A program made the position numbers and the translations under genes. A stretch of 64,000 nt of DNA, taken from assembly GCA_015062345.1 (NCBI GenBank), contig SUUV01000005.1:5175-69174 (forward strand), in the 5' to 3' direction. The notes beneath the pieces were generated by a model. That model did no database searches and had not been told where the DNA came from. It worked only from the letters and a program-made list of their open reading frames with translations. The number at the start of each line of letters is the position of its first letter. Position 1 is the stretch's first letter. Of this stretch, positions 3,354-58,201 are shown one piece after another. The DNA comes from Alphaproteobacteria bacterium. Its GTDB lineage: Bacteria > Pseudomonadota > Alphaproteobacteria > RF32 > CAG-239.

Positions 3354-3833
3354 TTAGTAAGTTACGGTTAAACTAATTGTTGTATCGAGTGTTGCTGTCG
3401 GAAAATTGGCAGGTATATGCAAATCCGCCCATATATAACCGTCAGAGTTTATACTGATATTATCAATATAAGCATATTCCTCATCGGAATTACCGGTAAG
3501 AAAATAAAATTTTCCACTTTGATCATCCATTCCTTCTGTTCTTCCCCATCCGACAATGTTTACTCCATCTTCACTTGATATACCGGAACAATATCCTGCA
3601 CTTCCACCAAATACACTTATAATATCACCACTTGGAGTGAAATCAGATGCACTTAATACTGATTCGGCATTATTTTTTTTAAGATAAATTGTACCAAAAT
3701 CCAAAGGAGAACAAGTAATTTGATTTACATGTTCTATTTTTGCATATACTTCGGCAGTTAGCGATGCGTTATCAGCATTTGCGGTGCCTGAAATCATCAA
3801 AGCAACAGCGCTTAAAAGAAAATATTTTCTCAT
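3354..3833 (-). CDS. Secreted SCPU-domain (Csu/archaic pilin-like) family protein, paralog 1
   Basis: Signal peptide MRKYFLLSAVALMISGTANA. Mature N-terminal motif A.V.A.I......CSPLDFGTIYLKK and C-terminal LHIPANFP...TISLTVTY, matching the SCPU pattern (Cys...FG.Y near the N-terminus; IPA...G.Y....T.TVTY at the C-terminus). One of 7 paralogs in the window. Confidence 0.6.
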   Translation of the reverse strand: MRKYFLLSAVALMISGTANADNASLTAEVYAKIEHVNQITCSPLDFGTIYLKKNNAESVLSASDFTPSGDIISVFGGSAGYCSGISSEDGVNIVGWGRTEGMDDQSGKFYFLTGNSDEEYAYIDNISINSDGYIWADLHIPANFPTATLDTTISLTVTY

Positions 3834-3966
3834 ATGTTTTAATCCTTAAAAATAGTTAAACTTAATTTGAAAGGCAAAAATTTACCTTACAATACGCATC
3901 ATAAACCGTTTTTTTTTTGCAAGTAAAAAGAGTCGTTTAAAGAATTTAAATCAAATTTGAGGTAAA
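3834..3966 (-). promoter_or_regulatory. Conserved family promoter/leader cassette (copy A) with T10 homopolymer (3909-3918)
   Basis: Near-identical to cassettes at 9733-9866, 44814-44953, 45863-45993 and 57547-57694. On the gene strand it reads TTGCAA-(A)n-CGGTT-TATGAT...AAGGA-ATG. The tract is 10 here and 12 in the other four copies. Confidence 0.6.
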
Positions 3967-4045
3967 AAATCATTTGTAAAAAACTTGCTTTTTTAAATCA
4001 ATGTGGTATAGAAAAATAAATTAAAATTTGCTTTAAGGAATTTAT

Positions 4046-6310
4046 ATGAAACAAGAACTCTTGGCGCCGGCAGGTGATATTGAAGCCGGATATGCGGCTC
4101 TGTATTATGGTGCAGATGCGGTTTATTTGGGCTTGCAAAAATTTTCGGCTCGTGCAACTGCTACAAACTTTGATGAACATAATTTAAATCAGTTTACGGC
4201 CTATGCACATCATTTGGGGCGAAAAGTATATGCCGCAATCAATACGGTTGTACAAGAAGATGAACTGCCTGATTTATTAAAAATATTAGATGTTTGTTCA
4301 AAATGCAACATAGATGCGGTTATATTGCAAGATTTGGGCGTGGCCCGTGTCATTAAACAATCGTATCCCGAACTTGAGTTGCACGCCAGTACACAAATGG
4401 CTGTTCATAACAAAGAAGGTGCGTTGTTTTTACAAAGTGTGGGCTTTTCCAGAGTTGTTTTGGCTCGTGAACTGACTTTGCCCGAAATTAAAGAAATCGC
4501 CTCAATTGAAGGTCTGGAAACCGAAGCCTTTATTCATGGTGCGTTGTGCTATTCTTATAGCGGATTATGTCAGTTTTCGGCTCTTGAAATCGGACGCAGT
4601 GCCAACAGGGGAAAATGTTTGTACCCTTGCAGAGCATGTTTTGAAAAAAACGGCATCAACAAACATTTCTTTTCAATGAAAGATATGGCTCTCGGTATTG
4701 ATGTCTTAAAAATGCCGGTTACTTCGCTTAAAATTGAAGGTCGTAAAAAAAGCGCACTTTATGTTGCCGCCGTAACCGATTATTACAGGCATATTTTAGA
4801 CGGCAAGGGGGCAGATTATCAAAAAGAAGAACGCATTAAACAAATTTTTTCTCGTCCGTGGTGTAAGTTTCATTTTAACGGAAAATCAAAAGATATTATC
4901 GACAGAGAGTTTGTCGGACACAGAGGATTAAAAATCGGTAAAATCGGCCGAATTTCAAAACAAGGCATTGAGATAAAGCTAAATCATAAAATCGGTCGGT
5001 TTGACGGTTTGCAAATTGATGTCAAAGGCAATGAAAAACCTTTCGGGTTTTCGATACAGAACATTAAACTGAACTCTAAAAATGTTTTTGAGGCCGCAAC
5101 CGGTGATGTCGTTCAAATCGAACTGCCGAAAAAATATCCAAATCTTGAAAAAGGGCTTGATGTATATCTGGCCTCATCAACCGAAGTTAAGGCATCTTAT
5201 CCGTATAAAAAGCCGAAACAAAATGAGTTTATCAATGGTATCAATCTTGATGTAAAGGTTGAGGTTTATCAAGATAACATATTGGCAAAATGTGATAATT
5301 TTGTTTCAAGTGTTGGCGGAAGCTTTGATAAGGCGCAAGATTTATCAAAAGTAACCTTGGCTTTTAAACAAGCATTTGAGAAAACCGGCGGAACTGAATT
5401 TTCATTAAAATCCATAAGTGTAGAAAACTCAGGTAGACTTTTTGTGCCTGTATCAAAAATCAATGAACTGAGGCGAGATTTATACTCTAAAATTGTGCCT
5501 TGCCACAAAAAGGGAACATTACCGACAATCAGCAAAAAAGAAAATGCCGGCTTTAAGGGGTGGATAATTAAAACCGATGATATAAAATGTTTAGAACAAT
5601 TAAATTTGGCCGATTTTGCAGAAATTGTTTATTTGATAAATCCAAAATCTGATGTTTCCGAACTTAAAAAATTGCCCAAAAACAAAGTGCGTATTGCTTT
5701 ACCTGAAGTTTGCCGTAAACCGAAAGTTTTTGAGCCGATTATAAATTCGCTCATCGAGTGCGGATATAAAAAATGGGAAATCGGCAATTATTGGGGGTTT
5801 AGTGCTTTGCCGACCGAAAAACTTGATATTTCGCTTTCATCATCTGTGTATATGCTAAACTCACAAGCTGTTGAACATGCAAAAGAAATGAAAGTTAAAA
5901 GAGTTTGTTTTTCCATTGAAGATACTTTAAGTAATATTAATCTGTTAAATGAAAAAATTTCCTTAACATCTTGTTTTATCGTATATCAAGATGCACCGCT
6001 GTTTATCAGTGCAGGTTGTATCAGAGATTATGATTGTAAAAACTGCAAAGGCGGGGTTGAAATTGCAGAGCTTAAAAAAGATGGCAGAATATATACGGCC
6101 ATATCCCAAAATTGTCAGTTAATGATGTTTAATGACAAGCCGTTATGTTTTGCTGATGAAGCAAAAAATGTTAAGGCAGATTTTTATCGTATGGACTTTT
6201 GCCATAAAAAATATGATGCGTTTAGGGTAAAACAAATTGCCGATAAGTTGATGAATTTTACAGATATTAACGGTTGTGTAAAAGCCAATATTAACAGTCA
6301 AAAAATTTGA
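4046..6310 (+). CDS. U32 family peptidase (long form with C-terminal extension)
   Basis: 754 aa. N-terminal region typical of U32 peptidases (LLAPAGD...AGADAVYLG...; conserved E..H..C.SYSG.C motif EAFIHGALCYSYSGLC). Confidence 0.75.
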   Translation: MKQELLAPAGDIEAGYAALYYGADAVYLGLQKFSARATATNFDEHNLNQFTAYAHHLGRKVYAAINTVVQEDELPDLLKILDVCSKCNIDAVILQDLGVARVIKQSYPELELHASTQMAVHNKEGALFLQSVGFSRVVLARELTLPEIKEIASIEGLETEAFIHGALCYSYSGLCQFSALEIGRSANRGKCLYPCRACFEKNGINKHFFSMKDMALGIDVLKMPVTSLKIEGRKKSALYVAAVTDYYRHILDGKGADYQKEERIKQIFSRPWCKFHFNGKSKDIIDREFVGHRGLKIGKIGRISKQGIEIKLNHKIGRFDGLQIDVKGNEKPFGFSIQNIKLNSKNVFEAATGDVVQIELPKKYPNLEKGLDVYLASSTEVKASYPYKKPKQNEFINGINLDVKVEVYQDNILAKCDNFVSSVGGSFDKAQDLSKVTLAFKQAFEKTGGTEFSLKSISVENSGRLFVPVSKINELRRDLYSKIVPCHKKGTLPTISKKENAGFKGWIIKTDDIKCLEQLNLADFAEIVYLINPKSDVSELKKLPKNKVRIALPEVCRKPKVFEPIINSLIECGYKKWEIGNYWGFSALPTEKLDISLSSSVYMLNSQAVEHAKEMKVKRVCFSIEDTLSNINLLNEKISLTSCFIVYQDAPLFISAGCIRDYDCKNCKGGVEIAELKKDGRIYTAISQNCQLMMFNDKPLCFADEAKNVKADFYRMDFCHKKYDAFRVKQIADKLMNFTDINGCVKANINSQKI

Positions 6311-8752: not shown

Positions 8753-9223
8753 TTAGTAAGTAAATGTGATATATGCTGTTCCGTATAAAGCAGAGCCGCT
8801 GCTTATGACAGCATCAGGAGTGATGTTAAGTGAGCCGGTTAATTTTCCGTCAGCATATTTTATGTTGTCAACATAAACACTGTCACCACCTCCTAATTTG
8901 ATTACACTATCAGCATTAAAAGTGGTACCTTCTGGGATATCAGAACAGGTTGACGGAGTTGCAGTCGTTCCATCAAAAACCAACTCATAAGCACCGGCGG
9001 TATCCATTGTAACTGTGCCATTGCTGTTCATTGTGGCGGTCATAGTGCCGGTGTTCTCGGTTTTTTTAACATATAATTTGCCAAATACGAGGCTTGTGCA
9101 ACTAACTTCGGTCGGCAGAATAAATCTGCCTTTGGCAGAGAACTCAGCCGCGGCTTTAGTTGCGGCATTTGCGGTATTTGTTGCCAAGAGGGCTACACAA
9201 GATAAAATAAAATATTTTTTCAT
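8753..9223 (-). CDS. Secreted SCPU-domain family protein, paralog 2 (second gene of a tandem pair)
   Basis: Signal peptide MKKYFILSCVALLATNTANA. Motifs CTSLVFGKLYVKK and C-terminal AYITFTY. It lies 24 nt downstream of paralog 3 with no separate cassette, so it is probably co-transcribed. Confidence 0.55.
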   Translation of the reverse strand: MKKYFILSCVALLATNTANAATKAAAEFSAKGRFILPTEVSCTSLVFGKLYVKKTENTGTMTATMNSNGTVTMDTAGAYELVFDGTTATPSTCSDIPEGTTFNADSVIKLGGGDSVYVDNIKYADGKLTGSLNITPDAVISSGSALYGTAYITFTY

Positions 9224-9246
9224 CAGTTTATCCTTTCATATCTTAA

Positions 9247-9732
9247 TTATTCATAGGTAAATTGCACAACAGCAGTACCTGTTAATTCAGAGCCGTCTAA
9301 GACAGTATCATCACCATCATAATAGATGCTAAGTTTTCCGGTTAATTTACCGTCGGCATATTTTATGCTATTAACAAAAATTTTTTCTGCCTCATCGAGA
9401 TAAATCTTGTTATCATCACCAACTGTAAAAGTAGCACCATCAGGTAAACCTGTACAAGTTCCCGGAGTGCCTTGACCATCAAATAGCAAGGAATACTTAC
9501 TAGGCGAGGTGTTTGTAATTGTGCCGTTCACGTCCATCATAAAATAGGAAACACCAGAATAAGTACTATCAGTCATTCCAAAATACAAAGTACCAAAATC
9601 GATAGGCGTGCATTCAATAATGGTTGGTTCAATGATGGTAGCAGAAGCTTTAAGGTTGCTTGTTCCATCGGTGGCATTGGCTGTGGAGGCAGCCATCAAA
9701 GCCACAGCGCTCAAAAGAAAATATTTTCTCAT
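9247..9732 (-). CDS. Secreted SCPU-domain family protein, paralog 3
   Basis: MRKYFLLSAVALMAASTANA signal; CTPIDFGTLYFG; IKYADGKLTGKL; C-terminal AVVQFTYE. Confidence 0.6.
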   Translation of the reverse strand: MRKYFLLSAVALMAASTANATDGTSNLKASATIIEPTIIECTPIDFGTLYFGMTDSTYSGVSYFMMDVNGTITNTSPSKYSLLFDGQGTPGTCTGLPDGATFTVGDDNKIYLDEAEKIFVNSIKYADGKLTGKLSIYYDGDDTVLDGSELTGTAVVQFTYE

Positions 9733-9866
9733 ATGTTTTAATCCTTAAAAAAAGTTAAACTTAATTTGAAAGGTGCAAAAATTTACCTTTCACATCACAT
9801 CATAAACCGTTTTTTTTTTTTGCAAGTAAAAAGAGTCGTTTAAAGAATTTAAATCAAATTTGAGGT
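9733..9866 (-). promoter_or_regulatory. Conserved family promoter/leader cassette (copy B) with T12 homopolymer (9810-9821)
   Basis: Same cassette as copy A; the tract is 12 nt. Confidence 0.6.
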
Positions 9867-9870
9867 AGAG

Positions 9871-10140
9871 GTGCTGTCTCCTTTACTATCATACCGGTGC
9901 CCAAGCTTTAGCTTGGAATAGACACCGGTATTTAAGGGAACAATTTAGCTATATTACCACCTGGACTCCGGCATCAAGTGCCGGAGTGACAGTGAGGAGT
10001 CGGACTCCGGTATCTTCGTATCGGAGTGACAGTTAGGAGGTATGTTGCAAAGTATGAGGCTAAAAACAAATATTTTCCGATTTTAAATAAAAGTCATTTT
10101 TCGTCCTGCACTGCGTGTCAGGTCGAAAACGCATCTGATT
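9871..10140. repeat. Structured ~270-bp repeat element, left copy of an inverted pair (partner 45595-45850)
   Basis: Reverse-complement match to 45595-45850 over roughly 250-270 bp with few mismatches. It contains nested hairpins (accggtg[cccaagc-ttta-gcttgg]aatagacaccggt) and two CCGGCATCAAGTGCCGG-AGTGACAGTGAGGAG units. Confidence 0.7.
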
Positions 10141-17239: not shown

Positions 17240-17695
17240 CTAATATGTGTATGTGATGGTAAACGAGCCGGTATAAATGCCGGCTTGCACTTTTTCGGGA
17301 ATATCTAATGTGCCGTTGATTTGTGCGTTGTCGGCTGAAATTTCGGATAAAGTAAGAGATGTTTCTCCGGTTTCATTTTTTAAAATCACCGTTTGCGGAA
17401 ACTTAATCGATTGTGCACTTGAAGTATCGGATATATTTTCGCATAGTGAATTTTTGTAACCGTTTACCGATACAATATCCGGATTGTCATAATCGGCATT
17501 GCCGTTTGTAAGTCTGATGGAAGCTTTAGAGTTATTTTCTTTTAGGGTGATGGTGCCAAAATCAAGCTCATTACATTCAAACCGATTGGCAAAGACAATG
17601 GTTGCTTTTACTTTTATCTCGGCATACGATTTTATTTTTGCGTTTACCGAATCTGCCAGCAATATTAAAAAAAGTGCCCAAAAAAATGTCTTCAT
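17240..17695 (-). CDS. Divergent SCPU-like family member (paralog 4)
   Basis: Signal MKTFFWALFLILLADSVNA; CNELDFGTITLKEN; C-terminal IYTGSFTITYTY. The upstream region is only partly similar to the family cassette and its homopolymer is A6. Confidence 0.5.
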   Translation of the reverse strand: MKTFFWALFLILLADSVNAKIKSYAEIKVKATIVFANRFECNELDFGTITLKENNSKASIRLTNGNADYDNPDIVSVNGYKNSLCENISDTSSAQSIKFPQTVILKNETGETSLTLSEISADNAQINGTLDIPEKVQAGIYTGSFTITYTY

Positions 17696-17869
17696 AAATT
17701 ACCTGCCATAAATGTGTTTAAGATGCAAACATATTTAATGACAGGTAACTTGTTTTAAAGTATCGGTTTATATACCAAATGGAATAGGTTGAAAACGAAA
17801 AAACTTACTTTTAACATCGTATTATAAAATGTTTTTTAAGTAAAAAGAATCTGTTTACATATTTAAATC

Positions 17870-17905
17870 AAAAAATAGATATCCCCAGTAGACTGGGGAT
17901 ATCTA
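17870..17905 (-). terminator. Rho-independent terminator after the small membrane-protein gene
   Basis: Perfect hairpin agatatcccc-agtagac-ggggatatct, followed on the minus strand by TTTTTTGATTT. Confidence 0.6.
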
Positions 17906-30435: not shown

Positions 30436-30512
30436 TGGTCGGGACGAGAGGATTTGAACCTCCGACTTCTTGCACCCCATGCAAGCGCTCTACCAGGCTG
30501 AACTACGTCCCG
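30436..30512 (-). tRNA. tRNA-Pro (anticodon GGG)
   Basis: The reverse complement gives a 77-nt cloverleaf: CGGGACG acceptor, GGTTCAAATCC T-arm, anticodon loop AUGGGGU, encoded CCA end. Confidence 0.8.
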
Positions 30513-30728
30513 TTATTATAACATAAATATACTTTTATCTCTTGGTGCAAGAAGTCTCCGACTTCTTGTCTTGCTTCGTAAAATTCGCTTTTATAAAAAG
30601 CTCATTAACTCCGCTTCGGTCAAAGAACTTATAACATTCGCTTCGTTCGCTTCTCGCTTCTCGCTCATTAACAAGTTCTTTCTTGAAATTAGATAAACTA
30701 TCCGTTGGGAAACTTTATCTAATTTCAA

Positions 30729-30778
30729 CCCCATGCAAGCGCTCTACCAGGCTGAACTACGTCCCGTTATTATAACAT
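30729..30778 (-). repeat. Duplicated fragment of tRNA-Pro (5' 38 nt of the tRNA plus 12 nt of flank)
   Basis: Exact copy of 30475-30524. Further direct repeats of aacattcgcttcgttcgcttctcgct...caagttcttt lie at ~30613-30670 and ~30774-30815. An inverted tRNA-derived palindrome lies at 30545-30572. Confidence 0.7.
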
Positions 30779-30848
30779 TCGCTTCGTTCGCTTCTCGCTC
30801 ATTACAAGTTCTTTAAGTTAAAAGCACCAATCACGGTGCTTCAAACAG

Positions 30849-30936
30849 TGGCGGAGCGTATAGGACTCGAACCTATGCATCGCTATTCACGATGACGGAT
30901 TAGCAATCCGCTGCATTACCACTCTGCCAACGCTCC
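30849..30936 (-). tRNA. tRNA-Ser (anticodon GCU), class II with long variable arm
   Basis: The reverse complement gives GGAGCGU...anticodon loop UUGCUAA...long extra arm...GGTTCGAGTCC...CGCUCCGCCA (88 nt). Confidence 0.75.
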
Positions 30937-41770: not shown

Positions 41771-42222
41771 AAGAATTAATAAAGTCATATAAAGACAAAG
41801 ACGAGATTTTAAGCGATTATGAAAGTTTTAAGAACAACTGGCAATATGATATTGAAAATGAAAAAGGCGAGCATTTAAGCGGATTAAAGATTGAGAAAAA
41901 TATAAACTCAATAAAATATGTCAATTTGCAAGAATGGGCAGGAAATATGCACGATAAGGAACATTTGACAAGCGAAGAAATTGAAAATTTCCGAATTTGC
42001 TTAAAAAACCAGTTTATCATCATCAACACCAAGAATCCGGCTCCCGAGCCTGTGCTTGACTATGAAACCGAAAAACAAAGATATATTGCAAGAAATAAAC
42101 GCATGGTTAATGCAGCAAGAGAAAACGGCAGAGATGAAACATATCTTAAACAAATGGAGCAAGATTTAAACCATATGATGTATGAATATCTTGAAAGGGT
42201 ATTTGGTGGAAAAGGCAGATAA
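41767..42222 (+). CDS. Hypothetical protein (151 aa), first gene of a module inserted between folA and thyA
   Basis: Its start overlaps the folA stop (ATGA). No recognisable motif. Confidence 0.4.
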   Translation: MKELIKSYKDKDEILSDYESFKNNWQYDIENEKGEHLSGLKIEKNINSIKYVNLQEWAGNMHDKEHLTSEEIENFRICLKNQFIIINTKNPAPEPVLDYETEKQRYIARNKRMVNAARENGRDETYLKQMEQDLNHMMYEYLERVFGGKGR

Positions 42223-43498
42223 TTACATCGAAAGTTTTTTGGATAATGCAACTTTTAAAAATATAAACGAGCCGGTTGCATTGTTCTTTTCGTATGTAGA
42301 TACTGAATTTTTTGAATATTATAAGACCGACAAAAAAGAGCTTATAAATATTAACAGTGTTCGTAAGAACCAGTTGATTGATTTTTTGGAGGGAGCAAAA
42401 TATTTAGTGGTTGCGGAAGATAATATTTTAGCCTCACATCCGGCAACAATTGTGGTTAGCAACCGAGGCATTCAAACTCCTTTTTTAGAACCCGATAAAG
42501 CCAAAGACTTTGCTTATGATATGCTATCATATATAGAAAGCACCGGTTTTGTTAAAGTAATGAGCAAAGTTTTGGCGATTCGCTTAAGTCAACTTCCGGC
42601 ACCCGAATTAGAAAAAGGCGGACAACCGATTGTATATTCTCACTTAAAACACCCTGATAAAAAAGTTGTCGATTACATTAATTATCGTTACGGAAAAGAT
42701 TTTATCAATCAACAATATAAATATGCTTGGTCACAAGGACTTGATACTGCGCAAAAGAAAAAACAAATTCCAGATATTGCTGATTTGAGTCAAGATTTAT
42801 ATTCAGGACGCAAATTTACCGTTCATCCGTATTATTCATATGCAAACAAAGACTTAGAATCGAGATATCATACTTATGCCACCCCTCATTATGTACATGC
42901 GGCAAAGTTTTGCGGGCAAAAATATGCCCCATTCGGCCTTATCCACCATTATCAAAAATCTGAAAATCAGGTCTATTATGATGATTATGCCATAGAATAT
43001 AACGGAAAACCGGAAACTACTGTTGATAAACAACTTGAAACTATTGTTGTACCAAAGGACAACGAATATAACGGACTCGAAATGTATATGGATACTCGTT
43101 ACTATATGATACCTGACGATGAAGAAAGTTGGATAGCCTTTAAAGAAAATTTAAGAGCTTCATATATACCGTTAAATGAATATTTAAAAAACCGAAGAAT
43201 AAACATCTTAAAAGAAGCCAAAGATAATGGAAACAGAGCTAAAACTTATTTTCCCATAGGTTTGGATTTACAAAATCTATTGCTTGAAAATTATCATCCA
43301 CAAAATGCAACATTAGATGATGTTTTAATTGATAATAATGTCATTTTAAAGCATTATAAAAGCAATGCTGATTTTGAAGCCTCAATTAAACAAATGCAAC
43401 AAAAAGTTAATCAGGCAAAACAAATTGATAATTCAAAAGAAATTAAACAAACGGCAAAAGTAATAAATACAATTGAAAATAAAGGAGCTGTAAGATGA
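42182..43498 (+). CDS. Hypothetical His/Tyr-rich protein (438 aa), second gene of the inserted module
   Basis: Overlaps the previous ORF by 41 nt in a different frame, with no clear RBS at the annotated ATG. Its C-terminus IENKGAVR is encoded by the duplicated folA/thyA junction. Confidence 0.4.
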
Positions 43499-44378: not shown

Positions 44379-44813
44379 TTAATAAGTCCTTGTTAATGTA
44401 AATGAACCTTCGTATACTCCTGCTGCAACATTAGCGGGGATATGTAATGCTGTAAACAAGCTGTTCATCTCGTTTGAAGCACCATATACAAGTGTCAAAA
44501 CATCATCACTGGTTGAAGATAAAAGGTCTAGAGTATTCTCTATATCATCATTACCAAAATCGTTCACATTGCACACAACATCTCCGCTTCCACTCATGGA
44601 TATAAAATCTTCACTTTCACTCATATTATCTTCAATTACCATATCTTCATTGTCTTGTTTAACAACAATAGTACCATAATCAAGGTTGTTACAAGTAAAA
44701 GTGCCTGCTACTTGAATTGTTGCCTTAGCGGTTACTTCTGCGTAGTCGGTGGTTGCGTTGGCGGTGCTTGTGAGCATTAAAGCCACAGCTGATAAAAGAA
44801 AATATTTTCTCAT
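44379..44813 (-). CDS. Secreted SCPU-domain family protein, paralog 5 (acidic, Asp/Glu/Ser-rich)
   Basis: MRKYFLLSAVALMLTSTANA; CNNLDYGTIVVKQDN; LHIPANVAAGVYEGSFTLTRTY. Confidence 0.6.
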   Translation of the reverse strand: MRKYFLLSAVALMLTSTANATTDYAEVTAKATIQVAGTFTCNNLDYGTIVVKQDNEDMVIEDNMSESEDFISMSGSGDVVCNVNDFGNDDIENTLDLLSSTSDDVLTLVYGASNEMNSLFTALHIPANVAAGVYEGSFTLTRTY

Positions 44814-44953
44814 TTTTAAAATTCCTTTACAAAAATAGTTAAACTTAATTTGAAAGGCAAAAATTTACCTTTCACATCGCATCATAAACCGTTTTTTTTT
44901 TTTGCAAGTAAAAAGAGTCTAATTGTGGATTTAAATCAAAAATGAGGTAAAAA
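44814..44953 (-). promoter_or_regulatory. Conserved family promoter/leader cassette (copy C) with T12 (44892-44903)
   Basis: Same cassette. Confidence 0.6.
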
Positions 44954-45594
44954 CATATTGACTTTGATGCTTTTTTTTATAATTCTTAATAAGGGGGATG
45001 CGGATTATGATTGAAATGAAAGAAAAATTGACCGGTACACGCATATATTTGCAAAAGCCTGAGGTGAGTTTTGAGTTTGCAAAAAAAATGTTTGCGGTTG
45101 TTGATGCCAACAGAGATATCATTATGCCATGGTTAGAGTGGGCACTGCCAACTATTACAAAATCTGCGGAAGATGATTTTGCATTTGCCTATGAGGCTGA
45201 TAAGGCTTGGAAAACAGGTGAGCGTTTTGAATATCCGATATACGATATTAATAACGATGAATTTTTGGGTATAATTGGTGTGATAAAAAGAGGGAAAGAC
45301 CGAAATTTGGCATTTGAGCTTGGCTATTGGCTCAAAAAAGATGCTTGGAAAAAAGGATATATCCAAGAGGCAATCAAATTGGTTGAAGATGAGCTCTTTG
45401 CCCAAGGTATTGTGCGGATTACCATAAGAGCTGATGTGGAAAATGAAAATTCAAACAAAACAGCCCAAAAAGCCGGATATACTTTTGAAGGCACATTGAA
45501 AAAAAGTCACTATAATATGTGTTTGCATCAGTTTAGGGACCTGAATTTGTATTCTAAAACAAAAGCATAAATTCTAAATATTTCTAAAAGCGAA

Positions 45595-45850
45595 GATGTT
45601 TTTCTGACCTACCGCACAGCGCAGGTCGAAACATAACTTTTATTTAAAATCGGAAAATATTTGTTTTTTATCCTCATACTTTGAAACCGCCTCCTAACTG
45701 TCACTCCGGCACTTGATGCCAGAGTCCGCCTCCTCACTGTCACTCCGGCACTTGATGCCGGAGTCCAGGTGGTAATATAGCTAAATTATTCCCTGGATAC
45801 CGGTGTCTATTCCAAGCTAAAGCTTGGGCACCAGTATGACGGTGATGAGA
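45595..45850. repeat. Structured ~270-bp repeat element, right copy (inverted relative to 9871-10140)
   Basis: Reverse-complement match to the left copy. Contains two tandem ~36-bp units (ctgtcactccggcacttgatgcc[a/g]gagtcc), each with a CCGGCA...TGCCGG hairpin. Confidence 0.7.
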
Positions 45851-45862
45851 GAGACACCTCTA

Positions 45863-45993
45863 CATCAAATTTGATTTAAATCCACAAATAGACTCTTTTT
45901 ACTTGCAAAAAAAAAAAACGGTTTATGATGTGATGTGAAAGGGCATTTTTGCACCTTTCAAATTAAGTTTAACTATTTTTAAGGATTAAAATT
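45863..45993 (+). promoter_or_regulatory. Conserved family promoter/leader cassette (copy D) with A12 (45907-45918)
   Basis: Same cassette on the + strand: cTTGCAA(A)10CGGTT-TATGAT...AAGGATTAAAATT-ATG. Confidence 0.6.
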
Positions 45994-46470
45994 ATGAGAA
46001 AATATTTTCTTTTATCTGCCGTTGCTCTCTTGGCTGCAACATCTGCAAATGCAACCACCGATTACGCTGAAGTAACAGCTCGTGCTACCATTGAAGTGGC
46101 TGGTAAAATAAGTTGTACTGATATGAACTTCGGCACTATCGTTGTTAAAAAAGACAATGCAGAATCTGTTGTAGATATGAACTATATCTTTAATGACGAG
46201 TCTTATTGGGATGTATCTACTCAAGGTGATATTATATCCATAACAGGATACGATTTAACAAAATGTGAAAATGGCTTTCTTGCTATGGGTGACCCATATC
46301 ATCCGGAATTTCCGAGCGAAATTACTTTATCTAACGGTACAAGCAAGATTACTGTAACCGATGTGTATTATGATGGAGAAAAAGTATCTTCAGCCAAATT
46401 ACACATTCCGGCAAAGGTAACCGGTGGAGAATATACAACATCATTTACTATCCAACAGGTAATGCCATAA
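45994..46470 (+). CDS. Secreted SCPU-domain family protein, paralog 6
   Basis: MRKYFLLSAVALLAATSANA; CTDMNFGTIVVKKDN; KLHIPAKVTGGEYTTSFTIQQV. Confidence 0.6.
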   Translation: MRKYFLLSAVALLAATSANATTDYAEVTARATIEVAGKISCTDMNFGTIVVKKDNAESVVDMNYIFNDESYWDVSTQGDIISITGYDLTKCENGFLAMGDPYHPEFPSEITLSNGTSKITVTDVYYDGEKVSSAKLHIPAKVTGGEYTTSFTIQQVMP

Positions 46471-57546: not shown

Positions 57547-57694
57547 AAATATTTTACCTCATTTTTGATTTAAATCATTTAAACGACTCTTTTTACTTGC
57601 AAAAAAAAAAAACGGTTTATGATGCGTCTTGAAAGGTAAATTTTTGCACCTTTCAAATTAAGTTAAACTATTTTTTATGTAAGGAATTAAAAAA
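57547..57694 (+). promoter_or_regulatory. Conserved family promoter/leader cassette (copy E) with A12 (57601-57612)
   Basis: Same cassette. Confidence 0.6.
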
Positions 57695-58201
57695 ATGAGA
57701 AAATATTTTCTACTTTCTGCTGTGGCAGTATTAATGGCAACAAATGTAAATGCTGAAACTGGAACAGCATTTGCGGAGATAAATACATATGCTGAAATAG
57801 AATATGCATACGAAGTATCTTGTAGTGAGATGAATTTTGGTAAAATAATATTAAAAAACAATAAACAAGACAGTTGGGTAACCGCAACAGGTACTTATAG
57901 CGAAAATGTTTTATCTGTTACAGGTAATACAATAGCTCTCTGCAGTTCAGACGATGAAGAACTTATAGAGGCTATGGTAGAAGCTCTAAATCACCCTGAA
58001 GCAAATGGTTATACCTTAACAACATCTGATTTTGACCCTGAAAATGGTGTTGGTGGTATGATAAATATAGGCGAATATGTGGCAAAATCACATGTGGGTC
58101 CAAATGACTCCGATGCCGGAATAAGTGCCACAATATATATTCCTGAAGGAGCTCCTGCCGGTATATATACCGGTTATGTTCCAGTTAGCATAGTTTACTA
58201 G
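57695..58201 (+). CDS. Secreted SCPU-domain family protein, paralog 7
   Basis: MRKYFLLSAVAVLMATNVNA; CSEMNFGKIILKNN; IYIPEGAPAGIYTGYVPVSIVY. Confidence 0.6.
   Translation: MRKYFLLSAVAVLMATNVNAETGTAFAEINTYAEIEYAYEVSCSEMNFGKIILKNNKQDSWVTATGTYSENVLSVTGNTIALCSSDDEELIEAMVEALNHPEANGYTLTTSDFDPENGVGGMINIGEYVAKSHVGPNDSDAGISATIYIPEGAPAGIYTGYVPVSIVY

Follow-up and report, generated by a model that had tools for sequence, protein, structure and literature searches.

Results

Secreted-protein genes and their genomic setting

The window, by which we mean the whole 64-kb stretch of DNA analyzed here, contains five genes that encode secreted, DUF4402-like proteins of about 150 amino acids and are preceded by a common cassette of about 135 bp. 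Genes A (3354-3833; 159 amino acids), B (9247-9732; 161 amino acids), and C (44379-44813; 144 amino acids) lie on the minus strand; genes D (45994-46470; 158 amino acids; NCBI E7016_02055) and E (57695-58201; 168 amino acids) lie on the plus strand. The cassette copies are scattered among housekeeping genes that include those for U32 peptidase, AsmA, LptD, thyA, GNAT, MscS, and AcrB. The proteins encoded by the cassette genes (144-168 amino acids) combine a near-invariant Sec signal peptide (MRKYFLLSAVAL...ANA; MRKYFLLSAVALMISGTANA in protein A) with a divergent mature part that contains two invariant cysteines. Residues 1-33 are nearly invariant in the family alignment, and the remainder averages 34% column identity. 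The signal peptides end in TANA or NVNA followed by T, D, or E, and the first cysteine is found at about residue 41. Because these peptides are of the Sec type and end in ANA, and no lipobox cysteine is present at the cleavage site of the cassette-gene proteins, members of the family are predicted not to be lipoproteins.

Locus B harbors a second family gene (8753-9223, minus strand; 156 amino acids, MKKYFILSCVALLATNTANA), which is separated from gene B by 23 nt and has its own AAGGA without a cassette of its own. Thus, the two genes (8753-9732) probably constitute an operon in which one promoter serves two paralogs. A divergent member of the family (17240-17695, minus strand; 151 amino acids) passes the Pfam threshold for DUF4402 (PF14352) with a score of 32.4 bits against a cut-off of 25.2. 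The five cassette genes fall below this threshold or give no match. Across the family, 44 of 54 aligned members match DUF4402 at E ≤ 0.01 (best E value 4.5e-10), and source annotations label many members as DUF4402. AlphaFold2 models protein D as an all-beta sandwich. A structure search of the PDB (Foldseek) and a profile search of PDB sequences returned no significant match for the family; the model hints weakly at a fold of the chaperone-usher-pilin type. A Pfam scan of 10 ORFs that are larger or adjacent to a cassette found neither a chaperone nor an usher. Our survey of the literature found no paper on DUF4402 (PF14352).

Protein D is identical to E7016_02055, which is encoded on a 79.9-kb contig of an NCBI MAG designated "Alphaproteobacteria bacterium", and E7016_ tags are also found on at least 30 other paralogs. 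The cassette family comprises at least 30 genes per genome in this uncultured ruminant-gut alphaproteobacterium. Among the matches listed, the cassette pattern is also present in MAG RGIG4267 (JAFTYO01) from roe-deer colon, which originates from a catalogue of the ruminant gut (PMC8199421) and shares about 85-87% identity with the window in common housekeeping DNA. A third lineage (JAFQUK01 and ENA contigs) shows about 97.5% identity to the window.

An Rfam scan of the window returned only two tRNAs and no match in the cassette. The two tRNA genes (30439-30512 and 30852-30936, both within 30439-30936 on the minus strand) are accompanied by direct repeats of 51 nt (30474-30524 and 30728-30778) and 30 nt (30629-30658 and 30770-30799). 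These repeats are 100% identical and point to a tRNA copy, duplicated or decayed, between the two genes.

Organization of the upstream cassette

Read on the gene strand, the cassette consists of ACCTCAwwTTTGATTTAAAT, 9-10 variable nt, GACTCTTTTTACTTGC, (A)n, CGGTT, TATGAT, and G. Sequences 3' of TATGATG comprise 5 variable nt, a stem-loop, AAGGA, and ATG. In all five window cassettes, an upstream box (TTGATTTAAAT) is followed, after the 9-10 variable nt, by GACTCTTTTTACTTGC-(A)n-CGGTT-TATGAT-G. The ATG of the gene is located about 95-105 nt past each tract and opens a protein that begins with MRKYFLLSAVAL.

Cassette A, the putative promoter and 5' leader of gene A, spans 3834-3964 on the minus strand. 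It contains the box TTGATTTAAAT at 3944-3954, GACTCTTTTTACTTGC at 3919-3934, A10 at 3909-3918 (T10 on the forward strand), CGGTT at 3904-3908, TATGAT at 3898-3903, the leader hairpin at 3868-3891, and an AAGGA ribosome-binding site at 3843-3847. Cassette B (9733-9867, minus strand) has the box at 9847-9857, GACTCTTTTTACTTGC at 9822-9837, A12 at 9810-9821 (forward T12), CGGTT at 9805-9809, TATGAT at 9799-9804, and the hairpin at 9767-9792. In cassette C (44814-44949, minus strand), the corresponding elements are found at 44929-44939, 44904-44919, 44892-44903 (A12; forward T12), 44887-44891, 44881-44886, and 44851-44874. Those of cassette D (45861-45993, plus strand) are located at 45871-45881, 45891-45906, 45907-45918 (A12), 45919-45923, 45924-45929, and 45936-45960, and those of cassette E (57555-57694, plus strand) at 57565-57575, 57585-57600, 57601-57612 (A12), 57613-57617, 57618-57623, and 57630-57655. 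The divergent gene is preceded by a degenerate cassette (17696-17881, minus strand) of the form TTGATTTAAAT..GATTCTTTTTACTT-A6-CATTT-TATAAT, with the degenerate core TTTACTT-A6-CATTT-TATAAT. Its A6 corresponds to T6 at 17832-17837.

A full census of homopolymers in the 64 kb revealed runs of 9 nt or longer at the five cassette tracts only; all other runs are 8 nt or shorter. The box TTGATTTAAAT occurs six times in the window against 0.57 expected, in the five cassettes and in the degenerate copy at 17861-17871. The co-occurrence of cassette and tract is therefore far beyond chance. Our re-reading of the window agrees with the initial annotation, which had described five members with the same cassette of about 135 bp and had given all coordinates and tract lengths correctly, including the A6 of the divergent member at 17240.

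Two pairs of cassettes have additional relationships. Cassettes C and D (44860-44949 and 45861-45950) are divergent inverted copies that are 91% identical over 90 nt and lie 911 nt apart. A GNAT acetyltransferase gene (44998-45570) lies between them, an arrangement that is partly kept in RGIG4267 (L023). Copies B and D share a further repeat of about 280 bp located 5' of the cassette (9889-10136 and 45594-45839; 84-98% identical). This repeat contains 39-nt tandem palindromic units (CCGCCTCCTMACTGTCACTCCGGCACTTGATGCCRGAGT, 45687-45764), and its 3' part (GGGCACCGGTATGA...ACACC) is also found 5' of many RGIG4267 cassettes. The repeat may represent a REP- or MITE-like element.

Placement of the tract relative to transcription

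TATGAT agrees with the -10 consensus at five of six positions. The module also occurs in RGIG4267, with A11 or A12, 5' of genes with type-IV-prepilin-like N-termini (MRKICELGRSMVEMLGVLAIIGVLS). These genes match the module only up to TATGATGAGCT, after which 30 nt with AGGAG lead to the ATG. The part common to both gene families thus reaches through TATGAT and looks like a promoter. Pilin-like genes behind the module in RGIG4267 (L001, L003, L005, L006, L007, L012, L015, and L019; JAFTYO01) have the N-terminus MRKICELGRSMVEMLGVLAIIGVLSVGG, and several RGIG4267 pilin-like genes have altered or frameshifted N-termini.

In DUF4402-type copies, the leader stem-loop starts about 6 nt past TATGAT. 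The hairpin is 92% paired over 30 copies, and four of its eight pairs exhibit compensatory double changes. G-U accounts for 19 pair instances, counted at two pairs in 10 and 9 distinct copies. G-U pairing works only in sense-strand RNA. These compensatory changes and G-U pairs indicate that the region just 3' of TATGAT is transcribed and constrained at the level of RNA. The hairpin fits a 5'-terminal stem-loop of an mRNA that starts there, and we read it as such. A scan flags the hairpin of copy C as a terminator; we rejected this assignment on the basis of its weak stem (-8 to -14 kcal/mol) and the lack of a U-run directly behind it.

Sequences 5' of ACCTCA are locus-specific, which leaves no room for a common promoter further upstream. 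This finding, together with the boundary of the module shared with pilin-like genes and the hairpin that follows TATGAT, allows us to place the tract in the core promoter, 5' of the -10 element, with moderate confidence. The data indirectly support the view that the cassette behaves as a promoter plus leader.

A different placement has transcription starting upstream of the tract, such that the run is part of the leader, or makes the run a site for a nucleoid-associated protein or regulator; in either case, its length would have little effect on initiation. We consider this improbable. Conservation does extend about 55 nt 5' of the tract (ACCTCA..TTGATTTAAAT), and A12 puts neither sigma-70 hexamer at 16-18 bp, both of which speak for such an arrangement. 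It is at odds with the locus-specific sequence 5' of ACCTCA and with the match of TATGAT to the -10 consensus at five of six positions, with the hairpin starting 6 nt on. Moreover, the module shared with pilin-like genes stops just past TATGATG, where a normal short leader remains.

Tract length among copies and lineages

Grouping of the fetched cassettes by downstream gene yielded 51 distinct promoter copies from three lineages, those of RGIG4267 being drawn from among the matches listed. Tracts of 12 A's predominate (38 copies, 75%), followed by tracts of 11 (5), 10 (4), 9 (2), and 8 (2). The 10 E7016-type copies comprise eight A12, one A11, and one A10. Among the matches listed, the 37 RGIG4267 copies comprise 27 A12, three A11, three A10, two A9, and two A8; the four JAFQUK-type or other copies comprise three A12 and one A11.

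The sequences that surround the tract show little of this variation. No interrupted tract was found in 86 occurrences, and the tract is flanked throughout by TTGC and by CGGTT or CGATT, except for one TTTC variant. Over the 51 copies, the 16-nt flank GACTCTTTTTACTTGC and the 12-nt flank CGGTTTATGATG are all but invariant, which upholds the earlier description of a homopolymer between two conserved promoter blocks. Blocks beside this core (9-10 nt upstream and 5 nt past TATGATG) have diverged freely. With flanks all but invariant, tracts uninterrupted, and lengths that range from 8 to 12, length is the principal variable of this otherwise frozen core. Two sequence variants were observed in the flank itself. 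In L031 and L038 (JGI 3300032167), which represent locus C, TTGC is changed to TTTC by a G-to-T substitution in TTGCAA; the rest of 2.2 kb is identical and the tract is A12. In RGIG4267 (L074:9872; JAFTYO010000008), GACTCGTATAAATTGC replaces GACTCTTTTTACTTGC, a change that removes TTTACT but not TTGC; this cassette has an A12 tract and an intact gene of 154 amino acids.

ORFs are mostly intact in the short-tract copies, which argues against plain gene death. Signs of degeneration are seen in two of these copies: L012 (A10) has lost its ATG and L024 (A10) has a disrupted hairpin. Tracts of A14 or longer were not present among the loci compared, and all robust variants have fewer than 12 A's. 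The modal length is A12 in three lineages, down to about 85% genome identity, which argues for selection on length rather than free drift. Together with the purity of the runs, this conserved mode points to selection on the tract; such selection could target spacing, the physical properties of the A-tract, or its mutability.

Tract length at individual loci

Same-locus contigs were obtained from at least 15 JGI and ENA metagenome assemblies through exact-protein look-ups, and complete tracts were counted. In these near-clonal samples, the usual length was found in 37 of 41 contig observations at eight loci. Locus A was A10 in all three observations. Tracts of A12 were found in every observation at locus B (five), locus C (five), locus D (three), E7016_00950 (seven), and one further locus (two). 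Locus E was A12 eight times and A11 once, and E7016_02660 was A12 four times, A13 twice, and A10 once. A clean change of length at one locus was not found in the 41 contig observations at the eight loci. The same-locus contigs are mostly 99.9-100% identical to the window, which indicates that little evolutionary time has been sampled, and consensus assemblies contain majority alleles only. Contigs neighboring thyA, which were sought for more strains at loci C and D, were short and lacked cassettes. One sample (L049) differs from the window by a 1-nt deletion at 43357 that converts a 438-aa ORF (42182-43498) into ORFs of 391 and 34 amino acids.

The exceptions merit individual description. Both A13 alleles (L064 and L071) lie 5 nt from contig ends, and the sole other difference of the A13 contigs from the A12 reference consists of six substitutions over 10.6 kb of L064. 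These alleles could be real minority alleles that break the assembly graph, or error tips. The A11 cassette at locus E (L042) differs at other bases as well and has a different upstream flank. In the A10 contig L067, the upstream flank of locus A and the cassette of copy A are joined to the E7016_02660 gene and its HSP90-side downstream flank. Comparison of L029, L042, and L067 with the window (9867, 57556, and 3802-4398, respectively) revealed that a family gene meets a foreign upstream flank, and that the breakpoint coincides precisely with the cassette. These joins are either chimeric assemblies or products of homologous recombination between cassettes, which would shuffle genes or create inversions.

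Could the length differences simply have arisen as errors in sequencing long homopolymers or in assembling them from metagenomes? The position of both A13 alleles at contig ends and the frequent contig breaks inside or beside the cassette are what such artefacts would produce. Nevertheless, we judge this explanation very improbable. The A10 of copy A recurs in independent JGI and ENA assemblies (L025 and L026) and in the recombinant contig L067, and is thus not an assembly error. Likewise, A12 at loci B, C, D, and E was reproduced three to nine times each, and lengths of 8-11 occur within long MAG contigs of RGIG4267.

More distant comparisons revealed both retention and change. A12 is kept at the GNAT-adjacent locus C and its ortholog L023 in RGIG4267 (about 85% genome identity) and at a PMT_2-adjacent locus in L053 and L075-L077 (about 97.5% genome identity). 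Such retention would suit a fixed, required length no less than a switch. At an orthologous locus adjacent to a SPOUT methyltransferase gene, the tract is A11 in L053 versus A12 in L075; these strains are about 97.5% identical.

Spacer geometry

Where n is the number of A's after TTGC, the spacer between TTGCAA and TATGAT measures n+3, that between TTTACT and TATGAT n+8, and that between TTTAC and CGGTT n+4. Thus, for n = 8, 9, 10, 12, 13, and 14, the TTGCAA-TATGAT spacer is 11, 12, 13, 15, 16, and 17 bp; the TTTACT-TATGAT spacer is 16, 17, 18, 20, 21, and 22 bp; and the TTTAC-CGGTT spacer is 12, 13, 14, 16, 17, and 18 bp. In every reading, tract length would set the distance between conserved blocks.

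A scan for sigma-70 consensus promoters accepted copy A (A10) as TTTACT-18-TATGAT, the sole configuration to pass. Cassettes C and D, both A12, yielded no accepted site in the same scan; their spacers are 20 bp or 15 bp. Canonical promoters are present elsewhere in the window (TTGACA-17-AATAAT at 31099-31071 and TTGACG-17-TAAATA before a tRNA). Neither hexamer of C and D passes the scan; under standard sigma-70 rules, A12 would therefore be the worst-spaced state, and A8-A10 or A13-A15 would fall within range. Since A10 passes and A12 fails, in a genome with canonical 17-bp promoters, changes of 1-4 nt would be expected to matter. Because TTTACT gives spacers of 16-18 bp for A8-A10 and provides the only configuration that passes the scan, copy A may be closer to the optimal spacing than the A12 copies, not further from it. 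A sigma-54 reading with TTGCA as the -12 element was rejected by eye, as no GG is found 12 nt upstream.

These results modify several details of the initial annotation. Its arithmetic for TTGCAA-TATGAT (A10, 13 bp; A12, 15 bp) is correct; its choice of TTGCAA as the -35 element is not supported, TTTACT being a further candidate. Copy A, which had been placed one slip state away from the others, differs from them by two nucleotides, and the proposed +2 slip toward 17 bp has no counterpart in the robust variants among the loci compared, which are all shorter than 12 and include no A14. The annotation had also looked to tract heterogeneity across assemblies as the sign of a phase-variable promoter. 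Length was instead unchanged in 37 of 41 observations at eight loci, and the exceptions are contig-end or recombinant/chimeric cases.

CGGTT is all but invariant, although it would be mere spacer under a sigma-70 reading. If TTTAC-N16-CGGTT is the pair that is recognized, A12 would be the optimum. A spacing of 16 bp is typical of ECF-type promoters, and the match of TTTAC/CGGTT to known ECF motifs is loose.

The main rival to slipped-strand control of expression is an explanation in which A12 is a required structural part of a specialized promoter that uses an alternative sigma factor or activator (e.g., TTTAC-N16-CGGTT). The homopolymer would supply stiffness and a narrow minor groove, and other lengths would be rare, slow mutations that weaken or kill individual promoters, with no reversible switch for the organism to exploit. 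We hold this to be a real possibility, if a somewhat doubtful one. It accounts for the prevalence of A12 across three lineages and its retention at orthologous loci, the constancy of length in 37 of 41 same-locus observations, and the invariance of CGGTT and of the 16 nt 5' of the tract. Among the loci compared, the robust variants are all shorter than 12, as deletion-biased decay predicts, and the short-tract copies L012 and L024 are degenerate. The poly(A) of the Neisseria meningitidis nspA promoter provides a precedent for a tract that sets expression without phase variation (PMC6389960). On the other hand, most short-tract copies retain intact ORFs, signal peptides, and leaders, and about one quarter of the copies deviate from 12, which is much for a deleterious state. 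A pure 12-nt homopolymer is inherently prone to slippage, a fixed-length spacer of this kind would leave the conserved TATGAT without a role, and TTTAC/CGGTT resembles known ECF motifs only loosely.

Discussion

The cassette described here is, judging from its anatomy, a real and well-defined promoter-leader that is strongly conserved and contains a homopolymeric spacer. We favor the idea that slipped-strand events in this spacer control expression among the paralogs, a plausible reading to which we assign a probability of roughly one half. It is favored because a quarter of the copies, mostly with intact genes, deviate from 12, and because a 12-nt run slips and thereby alters spacing. The tracts are uninterrupted homopolymers of about 8-9 nt or more, the length at which repeats are regarded as slip-prone. 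A 12-nt homopolymer in a core promoter would slip unavoidably, and each slip would have to change the spacing. The gene family also supports this reading, being of a kind in which phase variation is typical: it comprises many secreted proteins of a host-associated organism, and these diverge in their mature parts behind a conserved signal peptide. The phase-variable promoter proposed in the initial annotation is supported in part, with respect to placement of the tract, variation in length from 8 to 12 between copies, and family setting; the clean same-locus change that it implies did not emerge.

We envision the following sequence of events for slipped-strand control. The cassette would serve as the common promoter and 5' leader of a very large family of secreted DUF4402-like paralogs, and its promoter part would also drive type-IV-pilin-like genes in the related MAG RGIG4267. 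Transcription would start a few nucleotides past TATGAT, such that the mRNA opens with the conserved stem-loop. The poly(A) would fill most of the space between GACTCTTTTTACTTGC, which holds the -35-like sequences TTTACT and TTGCAA, and CGGTT-TATGAT; its length would set the geometry of the promoter. Twelve A's would be the selected norm, from which replication slippage generates other lengths (8-11 as fixed states, perhaps 13). These lengths would raise or lower transcription of single paralogs. The predicted outcome is heritable and potentially reversible differences in the family members that are made, in the manner of a vlp- or fim-type contingency switch.

A bolder model extends slipped-strand control to a genome-wide combinatorial contingency system. 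At least 40 unlinked genes from two surface-protein families (DUF4402-like and type-IV-pilin-like) would use the same poly(A) promoter. A gene with A12 would be poised tightly OFF in a gap between two overlapping -35 hexamers, its tract being too long for TTTACT, whose range is A8-A10, and too short for TTGCAA, whose range is A13-A15. Loss or gain of A's would turn the gene ON, and recombination between cassettes would shuffle genes between loci. We regard this model as unlikely.

Promoter switches of this general type have been characterized in other bacteria. Indels in a homopolymer or repeat of the -35/-10 spacer switch vlp of Mycoplasma hyorhinis, maa2 of M. arthritidis, and vmm of M. mycoides ON and OFF (PMC2268961, citing Citti and Wise 1995). 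Like vlp, the cassette genes form a multigene family of variable surface or secreted proteins with poly(A) between putative -35 and -10 elements. Every gene carries a near-identical promoter, leader, and signal peptide of its own ahead of a divergent mature part, and the organism, like the mycoplasmas, is associated with a host and has a small genome rich in AT. Unlike the vlp products, the proteins described here have Sec-type signal peptides without a lipobox cysteine. Their genes do not form a cluster at one locus but lie dispersed between housekeeping genes, and at least 30 copies are present compared with three to seven vlp genes (PMC4198240). Furthermore, the host is a Gram-negative alphaproteobacterium, the modal length is strongly conserved, and switching is a proposal here.

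The Bordetella fim2, fim3, fimX, and fimN promoters combine a C-stretch with a conserved "fim box" at unlinked genes for fimbrial major subunits (PMC1891110). Tract length governs transcription of these genes and ranges between strains from 10 to 15 in fim2 and from 13 to 18 in fim3 (PMC1891110). The cassette genes resemble this system in that unlinked paralogs have a common promoter element composed of a homopolymer and a conserved box. They differ in the use of poly(A) rather than poly(C), and 37 of 41 same-locus observations are identical here, whereas fim tracts vary widely between strains. Among the 10 ORFs scanned with Pfam, no chaperone or usher gene was found beside the genes described here, another departure from Bordetella fim.

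A third comparison is provided by the nspA promoter of N. meningitidis, in which poly(A) occurs as A5 or A6 and was found not to phase-vary (PMC6389960). As predicted for our cassettes, the poly(A) lies in the promoter region of a surface protein; the nspA tract sets the level of expression, and its alleles remain constant within a lineage. Unlike this short tract, those reported here usually contain 12 A's, range from 8 to 12, and are found in dozens of paralogs.

If tract length controls these promoters, 2-3% of the genes of an uncultured ruminant-gut commensal would encode a repertoire of secreted or surface proteins that can be switched one by one. Most known repertoires of this kind belong to mycoplasmas and a few mucosal pathogens. 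The cassette would then extend a known kind of switch to a new taxon and a new protein family, at an unusually large scale, and would give DUF4402 a biological setting. If length is fixed instead, the cassette would constitute a sharply conserved, specialized promoter with a 12-A spacer for two families of surface proteins, and would be a useful marker of their regulon.
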